Of a DNA stretch of 56,260 nt, positions 28,858-40,900 are shown piece after piece. Under the pieces are notes generated by a model. It was not told the DNA's origin and made no database searches. It worked only from the letters and a program-made list of their open reading frames with translations. Position 1 is the stretch's first letter. Every line of letters begins with the position of its first letter. A program made the position numbers and the translations under genes. Source of the DNA: a phage; sequence record PX583170.1, one strand, 5' to 3'.

Positions 28858-30466
28858 ATGACTTCCAAGAAGAAAAACAATCTCTCTGTTAAAGTTGCAG
28901 ATGGGTTAGAAAACCTTGTAACGGGGTTGGGCGGTCAGGCAGATAAGTCCACTTTTAACCAGTGGACTTTCTCAAACAAGAACGCGAACTATCGCGAACT
29001 TATGAACCGCTTCCGTGAGGACTGGGTTGCACAGAAAGTGTGTACCGTCATTCCTCAAGATATGACGCGTAAGTGGCGGCATATTGATACCGAAGAAGGA
29101 CGCAAAGCGGATAAGAAACTTCGTATTCGTAAGCTGTTCCGTGAGGCGTATCAATGGGCCAGGTTGTATGGTACTTCGTTTGTTCTGCTCGACCGCGAAC
29201 TTATGAACCGCTTCCGTGAGGACTGGGTTGCACAGAAAGTGTGTACCGTCATTCCTCAAGATATGACGCGTAAGTGGCGGCATATTGATACCGAAGAAGG
29301 ACGCAAAGCGGATAAGAAACTTCGTATTCGTAAGCTGTTCCGTGACTCAAGATATGACGCGTAAGTGGCGGCATATTGATACCGAAGAAGGACGCAAAGC
29401 GGATAAGAAACTTCGTATTCGTAAGCTGTTCCGTGAGGCGTATCAATGGGCCAGGTTGTATGGTACTTCGTTTGTTCTGCTCGACCTAAAAGGTACGGGC
29501 AAACTTGATACACCATTGCGACTGGATAACTTGAAGACTGGATGTATTAAATCCATGAGAGTTATTGACCGCTCACGCTTATTTGCCGCAGGGACTATGG
29601 TTCTGGACCCTTTGAGTCCTCACTATGGTTTGCCAGAGTATTACACTTTGGCTGGGTATCCCGGCTATATCCACTACACTCGTTTCCTTCGGTTCGAGGG
29701 TACTGAACTGCCGCTGTTCGAATTCCAACGCAACATGTGGTATTCTGATTCGGTACTTATTCCACTGCTGAAAACGATTGACCAATTCTACACAACTGCC
29801 GCTGCTGCTGCCAGCCTTGCCCAAGAAGCCACTATTGATGTGGTAACTGTTGAAGGCTTACAATCTCTGCTTACATCACCGGAAGGTGAAGCTGCTGTGA
29901 TGAAGCGCTTCAAACTCATGAAGCTGGCAAAGAGTATTTATAACGTCTTAATTCTCGACAATACGGAGAAGTATGACACCAAGTCAATTGCACTATCTGG
30001 TGTGAAAGATTTGATTTGGGAATACTTGAAGATAGTTGCTGCCGCAGTTGGTATTCCGGCTACACGTTTCCTTTCTGCATCTCCAGACGGTATGAATGCT
30101 ACGGGCGAATCTGACCTCGTAAACTATATCGACTTGTTGACTGGCTTGCAGACTTCTGTGTTCGACCCTCGTTTAGATGTGGTAGACAAGATTGTCCAGG
30201 CGCACTTTGGCATTGAAGAATATAACTACGAATGGTTAGATATCTTCCCTGAATCCAATGTTGAGAAAGCGAAGCGAGCTAAAGATTTGGCATTTGCTGT
30301 TGACCTGCTGGTTAACAACGGTACTATTACTACCGAAGTTGCAAACGAAGTCATGTTCCATTCGGGCGTGTTCGGAACTTGTGACCTTGGCAAACCAAAT
30401 CCTAATCCTCCTAACATCCAAAAGGGTAACGCAAGTGAAGCAAAACCAAAACCTGGTTCAGCTTAA
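28858..30466 (+). pseudogene. Putative portal gene split into two ORFs (28858..29364 and 29285..30466) by a scrambled tandem duplication
   Basis: Removing 29194..29485 (292 bp) gives one continuous 438-codon ORF; portal call is by position after TerL only. Confidence 0.5.
28993..29485. repeat. Scrambled tandem duplication: full 201-bp unit, then two partial copies
   Basis: Unit 28993..29193; copy 29194..29345 matches unit bases 1-152; copy 29346..29485 matches unit bases 62-201. Confidence 0.9.
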
Positions 30467-30479
30467 CGACGAAGATACC

Positions 30480-31499
30480 GTGAATGAAGTAGTTTTGTTG
30501 AACGACAAGGCTACTTTAACGACCCGTCGTTTACGTGACTCTGGCGAAATGATTGCAGAATGCACCATCGCCCGTACCGGCATCATGCTGTACAAGGCGA
30601 AAGAACTTGGTGAAATTGCAAAACATCTAGACCCAGAATCTATTTGCCGTGTTCGTACCAAGCCGGAAGTATTATTTGACGAAGCAACCATCGAAGGCTG
30701 TCGTTCAATTCCGGTTACTATCGGCCATCCGAAAAATGATGTTAACATCAAGAACAACAAAGAACTCCAGAAAGGGTTCATCGAAGGGCGTCCAGTTGCA
30801 GACGGTTCTTTCTTGGCTGCATCAATCGTTTTGAATGACGAGCAAGCTATTCGATTAGTTGATTCTGGTGTTGACCAAATCTCCTTGGGCCATAATGCTG
30901 AACTGGCTGTATCAGAAGATGATGAAGCTGACTTCGATAAAGTTCGCATTATCCCCAACCATGCTGCAATTGTTGTTCGTGGTCGTGCTCAGACTACTCG
31001 CATTGGTGACTCTGGTGAAGAGATTGCCATTGTTGATAAGGCAACCTTTGACGTTGTTGAAGCAGAGCGTGATGCAGCGCTTGACAAGATTAGTGTCCTT
31101 GAGCAGAAACTTGCTGATGCAGAAACTGCACGACTATCCGATGAAGCCATTCAGGCTGAGGTAGACAAACGTGTAGTTGCTCGTACAGCATTGCTTGTTG
31201 ATGTGGCCCGTCTTGGCGACGAGTTCTCCAACCTAGATTTCTCCGGCAAGACCGATGCAGAAATTAAGTTGGCTGTAGTTAATAAATTGCATGACAAGGA
31301 TTTCAGCGATAAGAGCGAAGACTATATCTCCGCCCGTTTCGATGCAGCTCTTGAAGATTGCGATTCCATTACTTTGGGAGATGCCCTGAATCAGTCTATG
31401 CAATTTTCTGCTAAGAAAGATTCAGAAGCTCGTAAACCTAAAGTTTCTATTTCCGAAGAAGCTAACAAACGTCGTTTAGAACGCTTCAACTCTTTATAA
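30480..31499 (+). CDS. Putative prohead scaffold and/or protease (GTG 30480; ATG 30549 alternative; ORF opens at 30258)
   Basis: Position between portal and capsid genes; coiled-coil-like DAALDKISVLEQKLADAETARL. Confidence 0.4.
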   Translation: MNEVVLLNDKATLTTRRLRDSGEMIAECTIARTGIMLYKAKELGEIAKHLDPESICRVRTKPEVLFDEATIEGCRSIPVTIGHPKNDVNIKNNKELQKGFIEGRPVADGSFLAASIVLNDEQAIRLVDSGVDQISLGHNAELAVSEDDEADFDKVRIIPNHAAIVVRGRAQTTRIGDSGEEIAIVDKATFDVVEAERDAALDKISVLEQKLADAETARLSDEAIQAEVDKRVVARTALLVDVARLGDEFSNLDFSGKTDAEIKLAVVNKLHDKDFSDKSEDYISARFDAALEDCDSITLGDALNQSMQFSAKKDSEARKPKVSISEEANKRRLERFNSL

Positions 31500-31508
31500 G
31501 GTAAGACA

Positions 31509-31982
31509 ATGCCAAAGCAAGATTGGTCTATTAATACTGGTGAAGCATATGCAGGTGAACAATATGGCCTGGCTACCACCAACTCTCAGCGCCTGACTTA
31601 CGTTGCCGAAGAAGAAATGGCAAACTTTGGTCTGGCTGTTGTTCAAGGCACGGCCTCTAATCAGGTTAAACCTGGTATTGAAGCTGATGGCACTGTTCTG
31701 GGCATTACTATGCGCCAGCTTAACATCGAATCTGCCACCCGCCCTGGTGACGGCACTGTTGCTATTAAAGTTGGCTGGCCTCTGGGCGTTATGCTGTCTG
31801 GCCCAATCATGGTCAAACTGGTAACTGCAATCACTGATAAAGACATTGGCGTATCTGCCACTGGTCAATTTGGTGGCGTTGGTGCTGGTTATACTAAAGC
31901 AACCAACCTGACTGCCCTGCGTTATCCGGCTTCCGCTGGTGATGTTGTCCCGGTCATGATTAACGTAGTCCCAAAGCCGTAA
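31509..31982 (+). CDS. Head-region structural protein (157 aa) carrying a slippery site at its 3' end
   Basis: SD aaggtaa; ends MINVVPKP*. Confidence 0.55.
   Translation: MPKQDWSINTGEAYAGEQYGLATTNSQRLTYVAEEEMANFGLAVVQGTASNQVKPGIEADGTVLGITMRQLNIESATRPGDGTVAIKVGWPLGVMLSGPIMVKLVTAITDKDIGVSATGQFGGVGAGYTKATNLTALRYPASAGDVVPVMINVVPKP
31970..31976 (+). other. Candidate -1 ribosomal frameshift heptamer C_CCA_AAG
   Basis: X_XXY_YYZ in the zero frame; the -1 frame is open from 31964 to 32557. Confidence 0.5.
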
Positions 31983-32557
31983 CGCCACCTCCAGCTCCTA
32001 CAGTATCTGCTGTTGCAGGGGCTGTAACTGCGGACGCATCTGCCTCTGATGCAACTGTAACTGTAGACAAACTGTTTAAGTTTGAGAACTCTGCGGCAAC
32101 AGATTATAACTTCGCTGTTACACCTCCCGTGACTGGTGTTTCTGTGGCGGCAAACGGCACTGTGACTGTACTCAGTGCAACGACTACAGCCACTTCTGCG
32201 ACAATCAAGGCAACAAATAAAACAGAGTCTGGCGTAACTGCATCCAAACAGATTACGATTAAGCCTAAGCCTCCTGCACCTACGGTGTCTGCTGTAGATG
32301 GAGTTGTAACGGCTGATGCGTCTTCTACTGATGCCACTGTAACTGTGGACAAACTGTTTAAGTTTGGTAACTCTACAGCAACAGACTACACCTACGCTAT
32401 TACGCCTCCTGTGACTGGCGTTTCTGTGGCTGCAAATGGTACTGTAACCGTCTTAAATGAGACAACTACCGATACCTCTGCCACGGCTAAGGCAACAAAC
32501 AAAACAACCTCCAGCGTGACTGCAACTAAAGAGATTGCTATTACGCCGAAGTCTTAA
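31976..32557 (+). CDS. Two tandem Ig-like (Big_2-like) domains in the -1 frame, reachable only by frameshifting
   Basis: No ATG/GTG/TTG between 31964 and 32128 in this frame; repeat unit PPAPTVSAV...VTGVSVAANGTVTVL...KATNKT occurs twice. Confidence 0.5.
   Translation, partial: AVTPPPAPTVSAVAGAVTADASASDATVTVDKLFKFENSAATDYNFAVTPPVTGVSVAANGTVTVLSATTTATSATIKATNKTESGVTASKQITIKPKPPAPTVSAVDGVVTADASSTDATVTVDKLFKFGNSTATDYTYAITPPVTGVSVAANGTVTVLNETTTDTSATAKATNKTTSSVTATKEIAITPKS
31988..32554. repeat. Diverged tandem duplication, 2 x 282 bp, encoding the two Ig-like domains
   Basis: Protein repeats start at 31988 and 32270; ~80% nt identity by eye. Confidence 0.7.
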
Positions 32558-32612
32558 GTTGTGATGGCGCAATTAATAGTTGCGCCTCACCAAACAAAAC
32601 GGATTAATTTAC

Positions 32613-33620
32613 ATGCCTAAGATGATTAAACTGGCGGACGGTTCTGAATTCGAACTGAACGACGCTATCACCCGTATTCAGGATTCTGGCACTGTTGTCC
32701 TGAATGACGACGATGCAGTATTCTTTCAACGCCAGCTTGAGTACATTGAAGCTCAAACTTACGACACTCTGTATCCAGAACTGGAAGCTCGTGCTGCTTT
32801 CGGTGTGGACACTACTGGTGGTGCTGGCGTAAACACTCTGACCTACCGTTCTTACAACCATGTTGGTAAAGCTCAGGTAATTAACGCCCGTGCAACCGAC
32901 CTGCCGAAGTCCAGCATTTCTGGTAAAGAATACAGTATCCCTGTTAAATCTGTTGGTACTGCATTCGACTACGATATTGATGAAGTGGCATCCGCTGCTG
33001 TTACTGGCCTCCCGCTGGAAACTCGTAAAGCAAATGCTGCTATTCGTGGTTACGAACAGTATGTTAACTCTGCTGCATGGTACGGCGATAAAGCTAACGG
33101 CTTTGTTGGCTTCTTCGAAAACCCAGACATTACTAAAGCAACTGTTGCTGCTGGTGCTGGTGGTTCTACCAAGTGGGCCGAGAAGACTCCGACCGAAGTT
33201 ATTGCTGACCTGACCACTGCTGTGTCTGCAATGTATGCCTCCACTCTGAAAATCATGCGCCCGGACGAAATCTGGATGCCTGTTGAGCATGAGCAGTACA
33301 TCTTCAACACTGCACGTTCTGAGCAGTCTGATAAGACGATTGGTCAATTCTTCATTGACAACAACCAGTTCATCAACTCCCGCGATAAAATCAAGGGTCT
33401 GAACGCAATCAAAGGTCACGGCGATGCTGGCTCTGATTGCTTCGTTGTTGTTTGCCGCAATGCAATGGGCAACCGCACTTTCCGTCTGCGTGAACCTCTG
33501 CCGCTGACCTGGCAACCAGTACAACTTCATGGTCTGGTTTATGAAGTTCCTGGCCGTGGTCGTTTCGCTGGCTTCCAAGCGATGTATCCGGCAGCAATCT
33601 CCATCAACTCCGGCATCTGA
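32613..33620 (+). CDS. Putative major capsid protein (ORF opens at TTG 32580)
   Basis: Position downstream of terminase, portal and scaffold; ~340 aa; head-completion-size genes follow. Confidence 0.5.
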   Translation: MPKMIKLADGSEFELNDAITRIQDSGTVVLNDDDAVFFQRQLEYIEAQTYDTLYPELEARAAFGVDTTGGAGVNTLTYRSYNHVGKAQVINARATDLPKSSISGKEYSIPVKSVGTAFDYDIDEVASAAVTGLPLETRKANAAIRGYEQYVNSAAWYGDKANGFVGFFENPDITKATVAAGAGGSTKWAEKTPTEVIADLTTAVSAMYASTLKIMRPDEIWMPVEHEQYIFNTARSEQSDKTIGQFFIDNNQFINSRDKIKGLNAIKGHGDAGSDCFVVVCRNAMGNRTFRLREPLPLTWQPVQLHGLVYEVPGRGRFAGFQAMYPAAISINSGI

Positions 33621-33666: not shown

Positions 33667-34107
33667 ATGCAGATTAAGAACAACGAATCACGCAACCTTC
33701 AATTCTTCTTCTACAAGAAGGGAAAGTCTGGCAAAGCCGAACTGGACTTTGTTCACATTCCTGGTGGCGCAACTGTAGAAATCGACGATGAAATCTACAA
33801 ATCTCTTACGGCATCTCTGACGGAAGTTGAAGAACTGCGCGAAGAAGTGGTTCCGCTTGATGACGAGAATATCGGTGCTTCTGTTAAGACCGGTAAAGAA
33901 GCTCTTGTCATTAAAGAGTATTACAGCACTGGCAAAACTCGCAAAGTCAACCTGGTTAAAGAAGCAATCAAAGCTGGTTCTCTTACCATTGTTGAACGTG
34001 TGAAAGTTGGTATGCCTGACATTGATGCTATTCTGACTAAGAATGGTATTGATATTAAGGGTATGCCGGAAGACGTTAAACTGGCACTCTACGATAAGTT
34101 GGCGTAA
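33667..34107 (+). CDS. Hypothetical virion-associated protein (146 aa)
   Basis: Position in head/neck module. Confidence 0.4.
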   Translation: MQIKNNESRNLQFFFYKKGKSGKAELDFVHIPGGATVEIDDEIYKSLTASLTEVEELREEVVPLDDENIGASVKTGKEALVIKEYYSTGKTRKVNLVKEAIKAGSLTIVERVKVGMPDIDAILTKNGIDIKGMPEDVKLALYDKLA

Positions 34108-37291: not shown

Positions 37292-37750
37292 ATGGCTTGT
37301 GAATTGCTTCAACGTGAATTCACAAACTCCAAAGGCGAAACAGTGTTAGTCGTTGTTCGACAATTGTCGGCTTCGGCTGCACTGTCTCTTCACGCGGAGT
37401 TGGTAAGCAAGTTAGGCTCACGAGTATTTCCATTCATCGAAGGTAAATATAACTTCGCTGATATTATATACTTGATGCAGCAAGTAGAGCATACCGTATT
37501 CACAGAATTGTTTAAGCGTGTTATCAGCATGCACTCGTCCATAGATGGACAAGAAATCAAACCTGCATTATATGATATGCAGTTCAATGGCGAATTGATG
37601 TTGTCTTGCCATGTCTTTGCTTTCGTGCTCGAAGCAAACTTCCTTGATTTTTTCAAGCAAGGGCTCGAAATCAACGAACAGAGACGATTGGAGGCGGAGG
37701 AAGCATCCAAGCTGGCAGAGCAGAAGAATTCGAGTCCGGAGACAGTTTAG
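37292..37750 (+). CDS. Putative tail assembly chaperone
   Basis: 152 aa immediately upstream of the tape measure gene; acidic C-terminus. Confidence 0.4.
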   Translation: MACELLQREFTNSKGETVLVVVRQLSASAALSLHAELVSKLGSRVFPFIEGKYNFADIIYLMQQVEHTVFTELFKRVISMHSSIDGQEIKPALYDMQFNGELMLSCHVFAFVLEANFLDFFKQGLEINEQRRLEAEEASKLAEQKNSSPETV

Positions 37751-37909
37751 TATCCCTGTTCCCCGACATAAAATATTTTCTGCATCGTCCTATAATCGAA
37801 GACAGTTCTCTCTGCAAGCTACATGAGTTGCAAGATGGAACCTATTCGATTATGGACTTATTGCTATTCCACGACATTCTCGATTTGCGTAAGAAACTCG
37901 AACCAGTAG

Positions 37910-40900
37910 ATGAAGACAATGGCTAATCAAAAAGATTTAATGAAGTTGAGCGTTAATGAGTTAATTGCATTAGGCTCTCAAAGCGGTCTGACTTTCCATG
38001 CTGGTATGAAGAAGTCGCACATGGTTCAACAACTTAGTGCGAGCGCTGCTTCGGGATGGCTGGATACAAATGCAGAATTAATGGGCGGGTCGTTCGAAGA
38101 TGACAGTTTAATTACTGAATCTTTGGGTGACTCTTCCATGATTTCAGACGCTGCCCACATTGCACAAGTGCTTTCAAGTGCTGGCTACACAGAAGCATTT
38201 CATGCAGCAATGAATGGCCCATCACACCATGTAGAAGCTGTTCACGCATACATGGAAAGGCTTGGCGTTAGCACAGATGATGTGTGGATGCACATGCCGA
38301 AGCCAAATCCGAACTTACCGCAAGGTAACTTCAACATGCTTAATGCCTATATGCGAGATACCTTGCAAGGGCATCAAGATATTATGCCGGAAATCCCAGG
38401 TCATTATGCTGGCGATATTATGGCAGAATACTCCACCAACCGTGGAAACATTGCTGACTCATATAACTACATGGCTCACATGTATGTTGACCGTGAGCAA
38501 TACAGCAATCATGAACAATACGCAAGAGACATTAGTCGAGTTGCCAAACGTCTGGAACGAGAGTTACCCTCAGCCTTTAAGGAAGTTGGGTATACATCCG
38601 CATCTAATGTAGGAAATAAATCGGCCCCACATATTTCTTACATGGATGCACTCCCTCAGATTGGTTCTCCTTCAATTGTTTCTGGCATTGCACATCCTCG
38701 TGCACCTCTTAACGCATCTGGACTACCACTTGGCTCTTATGGTTCTGGCATAAATCCAGAATACTCCCTCACTGCATCATTAACTGGTGGCACTGGTTGG
38801 AGTGAACCAAGCAAGGCTTTGTATTCTTCTATTAGTGAAGCTGTTAAATCTGCTGCCAAAGTTTATTCTGGCTCCAAAGGGATGCTGAATACTCGTCACG
38901 AAGTATCTGACCGTGACATGATTATGGATAGTGCAACACGCTACACGGATTTGGAAGAAGCCAGAAGCGGATACGAAAACCTTCGTTCTGAACTTGCAGA
39001 TGAGCCAGCTTATTCTGCATCAAGTGTTCGAGCCATCCTCGAAAACACTTATGATAAAATGGATGCCGAACCTGTTCGCATTCCAAAGATGAAGGGAGCT
39101 TCACAGCGAGTCGATAAAGATTCACTGTCAACATCTACAGATTTTACAGCACAACTTGGAGAGGCCACCAATTGGAACTCTGCAAGAATGCGTCGCGAGG
39201 AACTTGCGATTGCAAACATGGATAGTGCTGGATTCCGTGATGTATCAGACTATGGCACAGGACGTTCCAAGTCCCCCGTCCGATTCCACGACTTAGAACA
39301 GGGCAGCCAAGAGTGGCTAGACTTCCGTAAAAATTATGACATAACTGGCTCAACTGTTGGGACCTTTTTAGGAAACAACCCATACACCCGACCTTGGGCC
39401 GGTATGATTGATAAGATTGGCCTATCTCGTAGTAAAGAGCACAGCGATTTCACCAAGAAGATGTTCGCTGATGGTCACAGGACGGAAGAAGAAGCACGCG
39501 CTCGTGTTAGTAAGGAATTTGGATTTGATATCAAACAAACTGGCGCTATAACAAATGACAACTATCCCGCCTTCATGTATTCTCCTGATGGTCTTATTGG
39601 GGATGATGCCATTTGGGAGCACAAGAATCCGCAAAGGGCTGGTAAGTTTGCTGACCTTCTTAAAGGCGACCATCCAGACTACATGGACCAAATTCAATTT
39701 GGTATGCACGTTTCTGGCCGTTCTCGTGCTTTGTTCTCACAAACCATCAACGACGAAACACGTTCACAATGGATTGAGAAGGACGAAGGATGGTACGAGA
39801 GAAACCGAAATCGCCTTGATTCTGTGCTTGGCCGTCTTGATGCTGGGCGAGAGTTTGTTAGAAACAATGCTGGATTAGGGCGAGAAGAGCTGATTGCTGG
39901 TGCAAGAAGTGCAATGACTGGTGATGGAATCTGGAAAGATATTCGTCAAAAGTCTACTCGTGGCTATTCTGCTGTTGCTGGTACCCCAGAAGACCCGTTT
40001 ATTGGTTCGCGTTCTTCGTACAATCCAGAAGCATCCTACTCTGACTACAAGCCAAACTTTGTAATGCACGAGCAAAACTTTCCGGCAACCACTGGAAATG
40101 GTGACACCGGAAATGACTCGATGGCATTGTCTGTTAAGAAAGGTATCCTTGCTGCTCAGGAAGAAAACAGGCAGAAAGGTATCGGTGCAGATGCAGACTT
40201 TGACGGCAAAGCTGATTCAATGGGCTGGAACCGTGAGAGATTTGACGCTGCCAATGGCGGTGGATATTCTGGCGGTGGCGGTGGTCGTGGCGGCAACTTC
40301 ACAAGTGGTGGCAACTACTATGATGACTACGGTCGCATGGGTGGTTCACTAGCTGCTGGTATTGCTGGTGGCAGTATTGGTTCAGCAACCAACGGAGTTA
40401 TGCAAGCATTGATGGCAACTCCTGCGGGACGTATGGCTGCCGTAGGCATTGGTGCTATTCAGATTGGCAATGAAGCTGCTGAATACATGAATGACTTTAT
40501 CGGCAACTCGCTTGATGCTGGTGTGATAAATCCTAATGAATATTCTTCTATGTCGCAAGGCTTGGAGATGTTAGGACTCAATTCACAACAAGCGGCACGT
40601 CTGAATCAAACCACACATAGTGCCTACAACACCCTGCTTAACGGCGACCCCAGCGCCGCTGTGAACATCGTTCGCGGCAGTAGGGGATTGCTCACCATAG
40701 GTGATATTCGTGCGACAGGCGGCGACCCTGTGGCCCTGGCTCGCATCATGCAGGAAAGGGGCAAGGAGCGTGGCTGGAGTCAGGCCCGTATCGCAGGTGC
40801 TGCCGAAATGGCTGGCCTGAATGGGATGGCGCGAGCCTATGACCGCACGGAATACAGCCATGAGCAAGCTGGTTCGGTGGTAGAAGCGGGTAGAAACTCC

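Follow-up and report, generated by a model that had tools for sequence, protein, structure and literature searches.

A putative programmed −1 frameshift that would append two Ig-like domains to the capsid cement protein of a Carltongylesvirus-like phage

We analysed a 56,260-nucleotide stretch of phage DNA (sequence record PX583170.1; hereafter the window), in which a gene for a capsid cement protein is overlapped by a second open reading frame (ORF) that has no start codon near its beginning and encodes tandem Ig-like domains. The cement gene occupies positions 31509..31982 of the plus strand and encodes 157 amino acids (aa; 16.3 kDa) ending in ...MINVVPKP*, with GTC (31968), CCA (31971), AAG (31974), CCG (31977) and TAA (31980) as its last codons. 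Within these codons lies C_CCA_AAG (31970..31976, plus strand), a slippery heptamer in the in-frame X_XXY_YYZ register that would allow re-pairing from CCA to CCC in the P site and from AAG to AAA in the A site. The −1 frame is open from 31964, directly after a TAA at 31961-63, and closes with a TAA at 32555-57; the first ATG, GTG or TTG in its 197 codons is GTG 32129, 149 nt past the cement stop. A change of frame must take place in the 16-nt overlap between the −1-frame TAA and the zero-frame TAA at 31980-82 (31964..31979, plus strand), and this overlap contains a single slippery pattern, C_CCA_AAG. The end of the 157-aa ORF, the position and register of the heptamer and the start-less open frame had all been reported in a preliminary description of the window, made from the sequence without database searches, and were borne out by direct reading and mechanical ORF analysis.

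Slippage at the heptamer would yield ...VVPK-AVTPPPAPTVS..., a product of 349 aa and 35.3 kDa encoded by 31509-31976 plus the extension, as opposed to the unshifted 157 aa and 16.3 kDa. The extension (31976..32557, plus strand; 193 codons and a stop) comprises the linker AVTPPPAPTVSAV and two Ig-like domains, and was recognized by its open frame, a match to PHROG 13745 and third-position bias. Among the pairs in the window formed by an ORF of at least 100 aa and a following −1 ORF of at least 60 codons, this was the only one that lacks a start for its downstream ORF within ~50 nt of the stop of the upstream ORF, and the only one with an X_XXY_YYZ heptamer in the overlap, excepting spurious ORFs nested in larger genes; the two features were combined in no other gene pair. 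The bare string CCCAAAG was not enriched in the window (8 occurrences against 7.2 expected).

The zero-frame product matched PF22758 (Phage_cement; E217 gp24/Pam3 gp6) at 1e-16 with 61.8 bits, which passes the gathering threshold of 27, and its residues 4-152 aligned with profile positions 4-146 of 146. It also matched PHROG 563 'virion structural protein' (2.8e-27). No match was obtained with phmmer against the Protein Data Bank (PDB), where the Pam3 cement protein (8hdt_G, 'Cement') was reached by a homologue profile alone and weakly (E 0.0024). The preliminary description had placed the gene product in the head region, which was correct, and the assignment can now be refined to a capsid cement/decoration protein, presumably trimeric and distinct from the major capsid protein. 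The Pam3 capsid, which packages 54.5 kb, carries 140 gp6 trimers, placed on its 3-fold and quasi-3-fold axes (PMC9942802); by analogy, the cement protein of the window would form trimers outside a roughly T=7 capsid (140 trimers). The orthologue from phage 4HA13, with a predicted mass of 16.5 kDa, was detected in CsCl-purified virions with 100% mass spectrometry (MS) coverage and was among the most abundant virion proteins (PMC9699118 Table S2).

The extension is built from two repeats of 282 nt and 94 aa each, repeat 1 at 31988..32269 and repeat 2 at 32270..32551 (both plus strand), located by repeat search and alignments. The repeats share 77% nucleotide and 79% amino-acid identity. Repeat 1 reaches midway before a start codon appears; its first half nonetheless has a homologous counterpart in the internal first half of repeat 2, and the linker PPAPTVSAV that follows the slip site is the same as that joining repeat 1 to repeat 2. 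When repeat 2 was modelled by AlphaFold2 with a 12-sequence alignment, an all-beta sandwich was predicted (pLDDT 92.9, pTM 0.81); the whole 193-aa extension, modelled by AlphaFold as a single sequence, reached a pLDDT of only 45.9. The best Foldseek matches of repeat 2 were Ig-like domains of T5 pb6 (5ngj; E 2.6e-4, TM 0.66) and phi29 gp8 (6qvk; TM ~0.62-0.64), with further matches to Ig domains of invasin, SraP and Sidekick, and the matches in BFVD included BIG2/Ig-like phage structural proteins. The two ~94-aa tandem Ig-like repeats foreseen in the preliminary description were therefore found, their Ig-like fold being backed by structure prediction, and on these models the repeats are predicted to be BIG2-type Ig-like sandwiches.

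Sequence profiles were less informative for this domain type. The extension matched PHROG 13745 'Ig domain containing protein' (2.6e-10), and this was its only profile match to Ig-like domains; the comparison with Big_2/Ig-like Pfam profiles that had been suggested as a check came out negative, since a Pfam search including Big_2, Ig_2, Ig_3 and I-set gave no match even at E ≤10 and the gathering threshold was not reached. A profile of the extension returned only spurious matches among PDB sequences (kinesin, uL11), and a homologue search with the entire 349-aa fusion was dominated by low-complexity words and gave one irrelevant match. The pattern of substitutions was that of coding sequence: relative to phage Y2, substitutions at the three −1-frame codon positions numbered 17/15/57 for the complete domain, and 10/7/32 when only its first 51 codons, which precede any start, were counted. 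A third-position excess was seen between relatives generally and likewise between repeats 1 and 2, and synonymous changes outnumbered non-synonymous ones. These counts show purifying selection on the extension, including the part that precedes any start codon.

Over positions 31300-32700, the window shares 97.7% identity with Escherichia phage flopper and 86-96% with other Carltongylesvirus-like phages (phiEcoM-GJ1, ST32, SA91KD and others); judged by sequence identity, the source phage is Carltongylesvirus-like and belongs to the subfamily Cleopatravirinae of the Chaseviridae. We compared the junction downstream of the cement gene in 24 GenBank Chaseviridae, 7 assembly contigs and 22 IMG/VR loci, some of which are redundant. 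A start-less −1 ORF, 54-191 codons long, occupies this place in about 30 relatives, the most distant of which has 40% cement identity. Wherever a long ORF lies between the cement and capsid genes, it lies in the −1 frame and runs uninterrupted through the cement stop, and an NNA_AAR-class slip motif is present in the overlap, 0-1 codon before the stop (five codons in locus L050). Of the 24 extension-bearing genomes tabulated, 20 have CCCAAAG unchanged, and it recurs in further loci, although the flanks have diverged; the codon before it varies (GTC, GGC, ATC, CTC or GCC, for V, G, I, L or A), but its third base is invariably C. Six variants of the slip site were found: GGCAAAG (in phage Myduc), GGTAAAG, GTTAAAG, AGTAAAG, CCCAAAA (L045) and GGGAAAA (L050). 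In L045 (1875-2258), the site reads C_CCA_AAA. In L050 (1923-2297), the locus with 40% cement identity, it reads G_GGA_AAA, and the extension there, of ~105 aa, is unrelated.

Ten relatives (Nefertitivirinae and several metagenomic lineages) lack the ORF; their cement genes have different C termini and are separated from the capsid gene by a gap of 15-90 nt, and no X_XXA_AAG heptamer was found in them. All 86 clusters of cement homologues are 145-177 aa long, ~70 of them ending in PK or PKx, and there are therefore no in-frame fusions of cement and Ig-like domains among them. The comparison with relatives called for in the preliminary description thus turned up neither a self-starting Ig ORF nor an in-frame fusion, and the slip motif was conserved where the extension is present. 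Because the arrangement is conserved across relatives, an origin by chance is untenable.

At least three unrelated types of domain are found behind this one junction, in half a copy, one copy or two. The window has the BIG2-like type. An Ig_2/Ig_3/I-set type, which exceeds the Pfam cut-offs in L029, is also present in Farigoule, Myduc, L030, L031 and L040-43, and a third type is shared by Fifi44 and L044. Two copies are present in the window, flopper, SA91KD and JL1, and also in DE15, as judged from a full-length match; most relatives have one. PYps3T (L010, 2462-2620) has kept CCCAAAG together with a 54-codon, internally deleted Ig remnant. Ig-like domains are considered to spread by illegitimate recombination and to be rescued at times by frameshifting (PMC5009743), and the domain swapping and copy-number variation at the junction fit this view.

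All comparative tests that we ran agree with the proposal of the preliminary description that a programmed −1 frameshift appends Ig-like domains to the head protein, and we regard such a shift, from the cement protein to a cement protein with two Ig-like domains, as very probable. Most ribosomes would read CCA AAG CCG and terminate at TAA 31980, giving the 157-aa cement protein as the major product. A minority would slip back by 1 nt on C_CCA_AAG, with peptidyl-tRNA-Pro moving from CCA to CCC and tRNA-Lys from AAG to AAA, and would then read GCC GTA ACG CCA... in the −1 frame up to TAA 32555. The resulting 349-aa product would consist of cement residues 1-156, a Pro-rich linker and the two BIG2-type domains.

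The sequence at the site is favourable to slippage. C_CCA_AAG is highly shift-prone and NNA_AAG is established as shift-prone in E. coli, and X_XXA_AAG sites owe this to the single tRNA-Lys, which pairs better with AAA than with AAG (PMC5009743). The 3' dinucleotide CC, the most shift-prone context in a study that used an A_AAA_AAG site (PMC5009743), is present here. The near-constant distance of the zero-frame stop, 0-1 codon after AAG, may contribute to shifting or may mirror the insertion point of the modules. A second in-frame and highly shift-prone heptamer, G_GGA_AAG, occurs at 33720-33726, in codon 18 of the small gene that follows the capsid gene (33667..34107). The −1 frame there ends after 21 codons, and relatives do not keep the heptamer (they have GGATAAG, GACAAG, AGGGAAG and others), which appears to be incidental and can be used as an internal negative control.

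Stimulators of frameshifting, which are common but not obligatory, were sought as a downstream hairpin or pseudoknot 5-9 nt away or as an upstream Shine-Dalgarno-like sequence. A local hairpin begins 15 nt past the heptamer (31992..32024, plus strand), and the 64-nt stretch that holds it (31977-32040) folds at -22 kcal/mol with a z of -1.83; the hairpin is weak and is probably no stimulator, and in a consensus fold over 14 relatives (-2.3 kcal/mol, 5 pairs) it was not maintained. In the GenBank record of SA91KD (L006), a rho-independent terminator is annotated right after the cement stop (2484-2526, corresponding to window positions 31992-32034), as well as a promoter inside the Ig ORF. Such a terminator, if real, would conflict with translation of the extension; it is unsupported in the window, because the hairpin there has no T-run and no terminator-like site was found, nor was a promoter-like one.

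Several observations weigh against a programmed shift at this site. Neither a conserved downstream hairpin or pseudoknot, nor an upstream Shine-Dalgarno-like stimulator, nor an Rfam match was found, and the efficiency of slippage could therefore be low. The relatives share phylogeny, so that the counts given above do not represent independent events, and the extension-less phage pAh6.2TG ends its cement gene with GAA_AAG TAA, by chance. As PYps3T keeps only its 54-codon remnant, the extension is dispensable. In addition, the extension is absent from the virion proteome reported for 4HA13, which lists only annotated proteins with at least 50% coverage (PMC9699118).

We also considered whether the Ig-like ORF could be an independent gene, read from GTG 32129, from a non-canonical start or by re-initiation after the cement stop. 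Most GenBank records do annotate separate coding sequences (CDSs), such as flopper gp48 (142 aa from GTG), ST32 gp56, Y2 gp67 and an ORF of JL1 with a GTG 23 nt past the stop, and an AGGGG core is present at 32017. However, these annotations do not converge on a start: the first in-frame start in relatives lies anywhere from −37 to +236 nt of the stop and is absent in many genomes, and annotators and gene callers have settled on truncated ORFs that differ in extent (45-184 aa) or have called no ORF at all. No Shine-Dalgarno sequence is present in ACACCTCCC, which stands before GTG 32129 in the window, and AGGGG has no in-frame start or near-cognate codon at a usable distance. Starting at GTG 32129 would also remove about half of the repeat 1 beta-sandwich, because the residues of repeat 2 equivalent to the start-less half form several strands. 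Given that the 51 start-less codons evolve as coding sequence, that the linker after the slip recurs between the repeats, and that the invariance of the heptamer and its absence where the ORF is absent would be left unexplained, we consider an independent gene very unlikely. We attach even less probability to an untranslated relic, that is, a decaying gene or a recombination scar between the cement and capsid genes beside which the heptamer is incidental. The internally deleted remnant of PYps3T, the variable copy number and the lineages without the region, which point to dispensability, and the lack of a Pfam match for the domain type of the window are compatible with decay, but a relic would hardly keep its frame open over 54-191 codons in ~30 genomes, with third-position bias, synonymous changes outnumbering non-synonymous ones and a confident predicted fold (pLDDT 92.9). 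Nor does decay account for the replacement of the domain by other intact Ig domains at the same junction or for a tandem duplication retained in frame.

An indel of sequencing or assembly that hides an in-frame cement-Ig fusion is conceivable in so far as the window contains an aberrant portal duplication and may thus suffer from local assembly errors. This explanation is effectively refuted by the recurrence of the frame structure in over 30 genomes and metagenome contigs sequenced independently, as well as in 86 clusters of ~157-aa proteins, by the absence of any homopolymer longer than 3 nt at the site, and by the 4HA13 cement protein, detected at a predicted 16.5 kDa with 100% coverage (PMC9699118). 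An independent start, a pseudogene relic and a sequencing indel were accordingly all rejected on comparative evidence. Somewhat less remote, though still unlikely, is a genuine frame change by another mechanism, either a slip of tRNA-Lys on A_AAG in the P site alone, with the nearby stop codon awaiting decoding in the A site, or transcriptional slippage. E. coli is known to support single-tRNA shifting on NNA_AAG (PMC5009743), NNA_AAG is all that four relatives have (with GGC, GGT, GTT or AGT before AAAG), the stop directly follows AAG in six to seven genomes, and the lack of an RNA stimulator would suit such a slip. In the window, however, the sense codon CCG sits between AAG and TAA, and the invariance of the full heptamer in most genomes, including its first C, points to re-pairing of two tRNAs. 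Transcriptional slippage was rejected, as the A3 and C3 runs are too short for slippage by RNA polymerase.

A programmed −1 frameshift at C_CCA_AAG has close precedents. Ig-like extensions of the major capsid protein are produced by −1 frameshifting in T3 gene 10 and in Lactobacillus phage A2, and capsid extensions arise in the same way in Listeria phages A118/A500 and in T7 10A/10B, the T7 extension not being Ig-like (PMC5009743). The preliminary description had invoked T7 10A/10B: its point that frameshift-appended Ig domains are known holds, but T3, A2 and the Listeria phages are the closer parallels. As in all of these, slippage by −1 close to the 3' end of a gene for an abundant head protein would give a minor, C-terminally extended structural protein, and, as in T3 and A2, the extension is Ig-like and would be displayed in low copy without a second gene. 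The carrier differs, being the major capsid protein in those phages and a presumably trimeric cement protein (PF22758) here; the present system is further set apart from the capsid systems by its C_CCA_AAG site, the lack of a conserved downstream structure, the two tandem domains and their variable copy number.

According to the concept of Fraser et al. (cited in PMC5009743 as B148/B149/B155), Ig-like domains of BIG2 and I-set type sit at the C termini of virion proteins, sometimes through programmed frameshifting, and non-homologous recombination lands them in or out of frame. That unrelated Ig types have replaced one another at a single junction agrees with this concept, whereas the fixation of the out-of-frame arrangement across a whole subfamily, with no in-frame version in 86 clusters, departs from it. 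In slip-site class, lambda G/GT (G_GGA_AAG) and E. coli dnaX (A_AAA_AAG) share the enterobacterial X_XXA_AAG type, read by a single tRNA-Lys (PMC5009743). Unlike the present site, dnaX and copA have RNA stimulators and give truncated products, and lambda G/GT makes an assembly chaperone, not a virion decoration. The copA slip site is reportedly C_CCA_AAG as well (Meydan et al. are said to have described it in 2017). Among cement proteins, Pam3 gp6 and E217 gp24 belong to the same family as the zero-frame product, and no frameshifted extension of either came up in the literature on them that we examined. T4 Hoc is an Ig-domain head decoration with a proposed role in adhesion, but it is encoded by a gene of its own and binds the capsid through a dedicated domain, and is not a trans-frame extension of a cement protein.

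The parallel with Pam3 gp6 leads us to expect cement trimers outside the capsid; subunits carrying the extension, present in sub-stoichiometric amount, would then display flexible Ig-like domains on the head surface, and the role of these domains is likely to be weak adhesion to surface carbohydrates. We infer slippage itself, the efficiency of which could be low, as well as incorporation of its product into virions. Two predicted tryptic peptides would reveal this product: AVTPPPAPTVSAVAGAVTADASASDATVTVDK, which precedes every start codon of the −1 ORF, and YPASAGDVVPVMINVVPK, which comes from the shifted product alone, because trypsin does not cut the K-P bond in the unshifted C terminus ...VVPKP. 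The peptide VVPK-AVTPPPAP put forward in the preliminary description would be cut by trypsin after Lys and hence would not span the junction in a tryptic digest. We tentatively suggest that the slip site may act as a fixed, stimulator-independent 'docking point' at which unrelated Ig-like modules are exchanged, duplicated and eroded, with the cement lattice as a low-copy display scaffold and the proximity of the stop possibly tuning or stimulating a termination-coupled −1 shift.

A literature search, which did not reach the original GJ1 and Y2 genome papers, found no description of this frameshift in Chaseviridae or phiEcoM-GJ1, and slippage was annotated in none of the GenBank records inspected. 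The class of system is known from T3, A2 and the Listeria phages; the cement carrier and the arrangement fixed across the family appear to be undescribed. Recognition of the shift would correct the annotation of an entire ICTV family, in which more than 50 Chaseviridae genomes show an unexplained gap of ~300-600 nt or arbitrarily truncated 'hypothetical' ORFs at this place. In 4HA13 (L014, MN136198.2, 2475-2815), the cement protein is numbered QEM43028 and the capsid protein QEM43033, and between them stands a 45-aa ORF, QXG07486, that was added later; going by the accession numbering alone, several small ORFs once called in this gap were probably removed when the record was revised. With the present case, cement/decoration proteins would join the virion proteins known to carry frameshift-appended Ig-like domains, and the junction would offer a clean natural system for stimulator-less X_XXA_AAG shifting, combining an invariant heptamer with natural variants, a variable stop distance and module swapping. 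Chaseviridae phages are under development against Shiga toxin-producing E. coli (STEC), Erwinia and Pectobacterium. Surface Ig-like domains could affect their adsorption, their retention on mucus or plant surfaces and their immunogenicity, and the slip site is an obvious insertion point for low-copy phage display.

The genes around the cement gene are arranged in the order terminase, portal, DUF2213 protein ('head maturation protease'), cement ORF, major capsid protein, and neck and tail genes. The major capsid protein gene (32613..33620, plus strand; PF09950 Major_capside, 1e-48) is the next gene after the extension. The portal region (28858-30466) is 292 nt longer than the phiEcoM-GJ1 portal (1609 vs 1317 nt) and contains an exact 152-nt direct repeat, with copies 201 nt apart (28993-29144 and 29194-29345) and a further partial copy 91 nt on. 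This repeated region (28993-29436) splits the portal ORF, which is intact in relatives, into 28858..29364 and 29285..30466; the duplication is probably an assembly artefact or marks a defective variant. The longest ORF for the DUF2213 protein begins at 30258, deep within the portal gene, and runs to 31499 (413 aa); most relatives have it annotated at 355 aa, which would match a start near 30435, and its start is accordingly uncertain. Farther downstream, a 152-aa ORF (37292..37750) lies between the tail tube gene and the 1241-aa tape-measure gene and is followed by a 71-aa ORF in the +1 frame (37611..37826) and a 160-nt gap; this stretch (37292-37910) is the usual position of tail-assembly-chaperone recoding.

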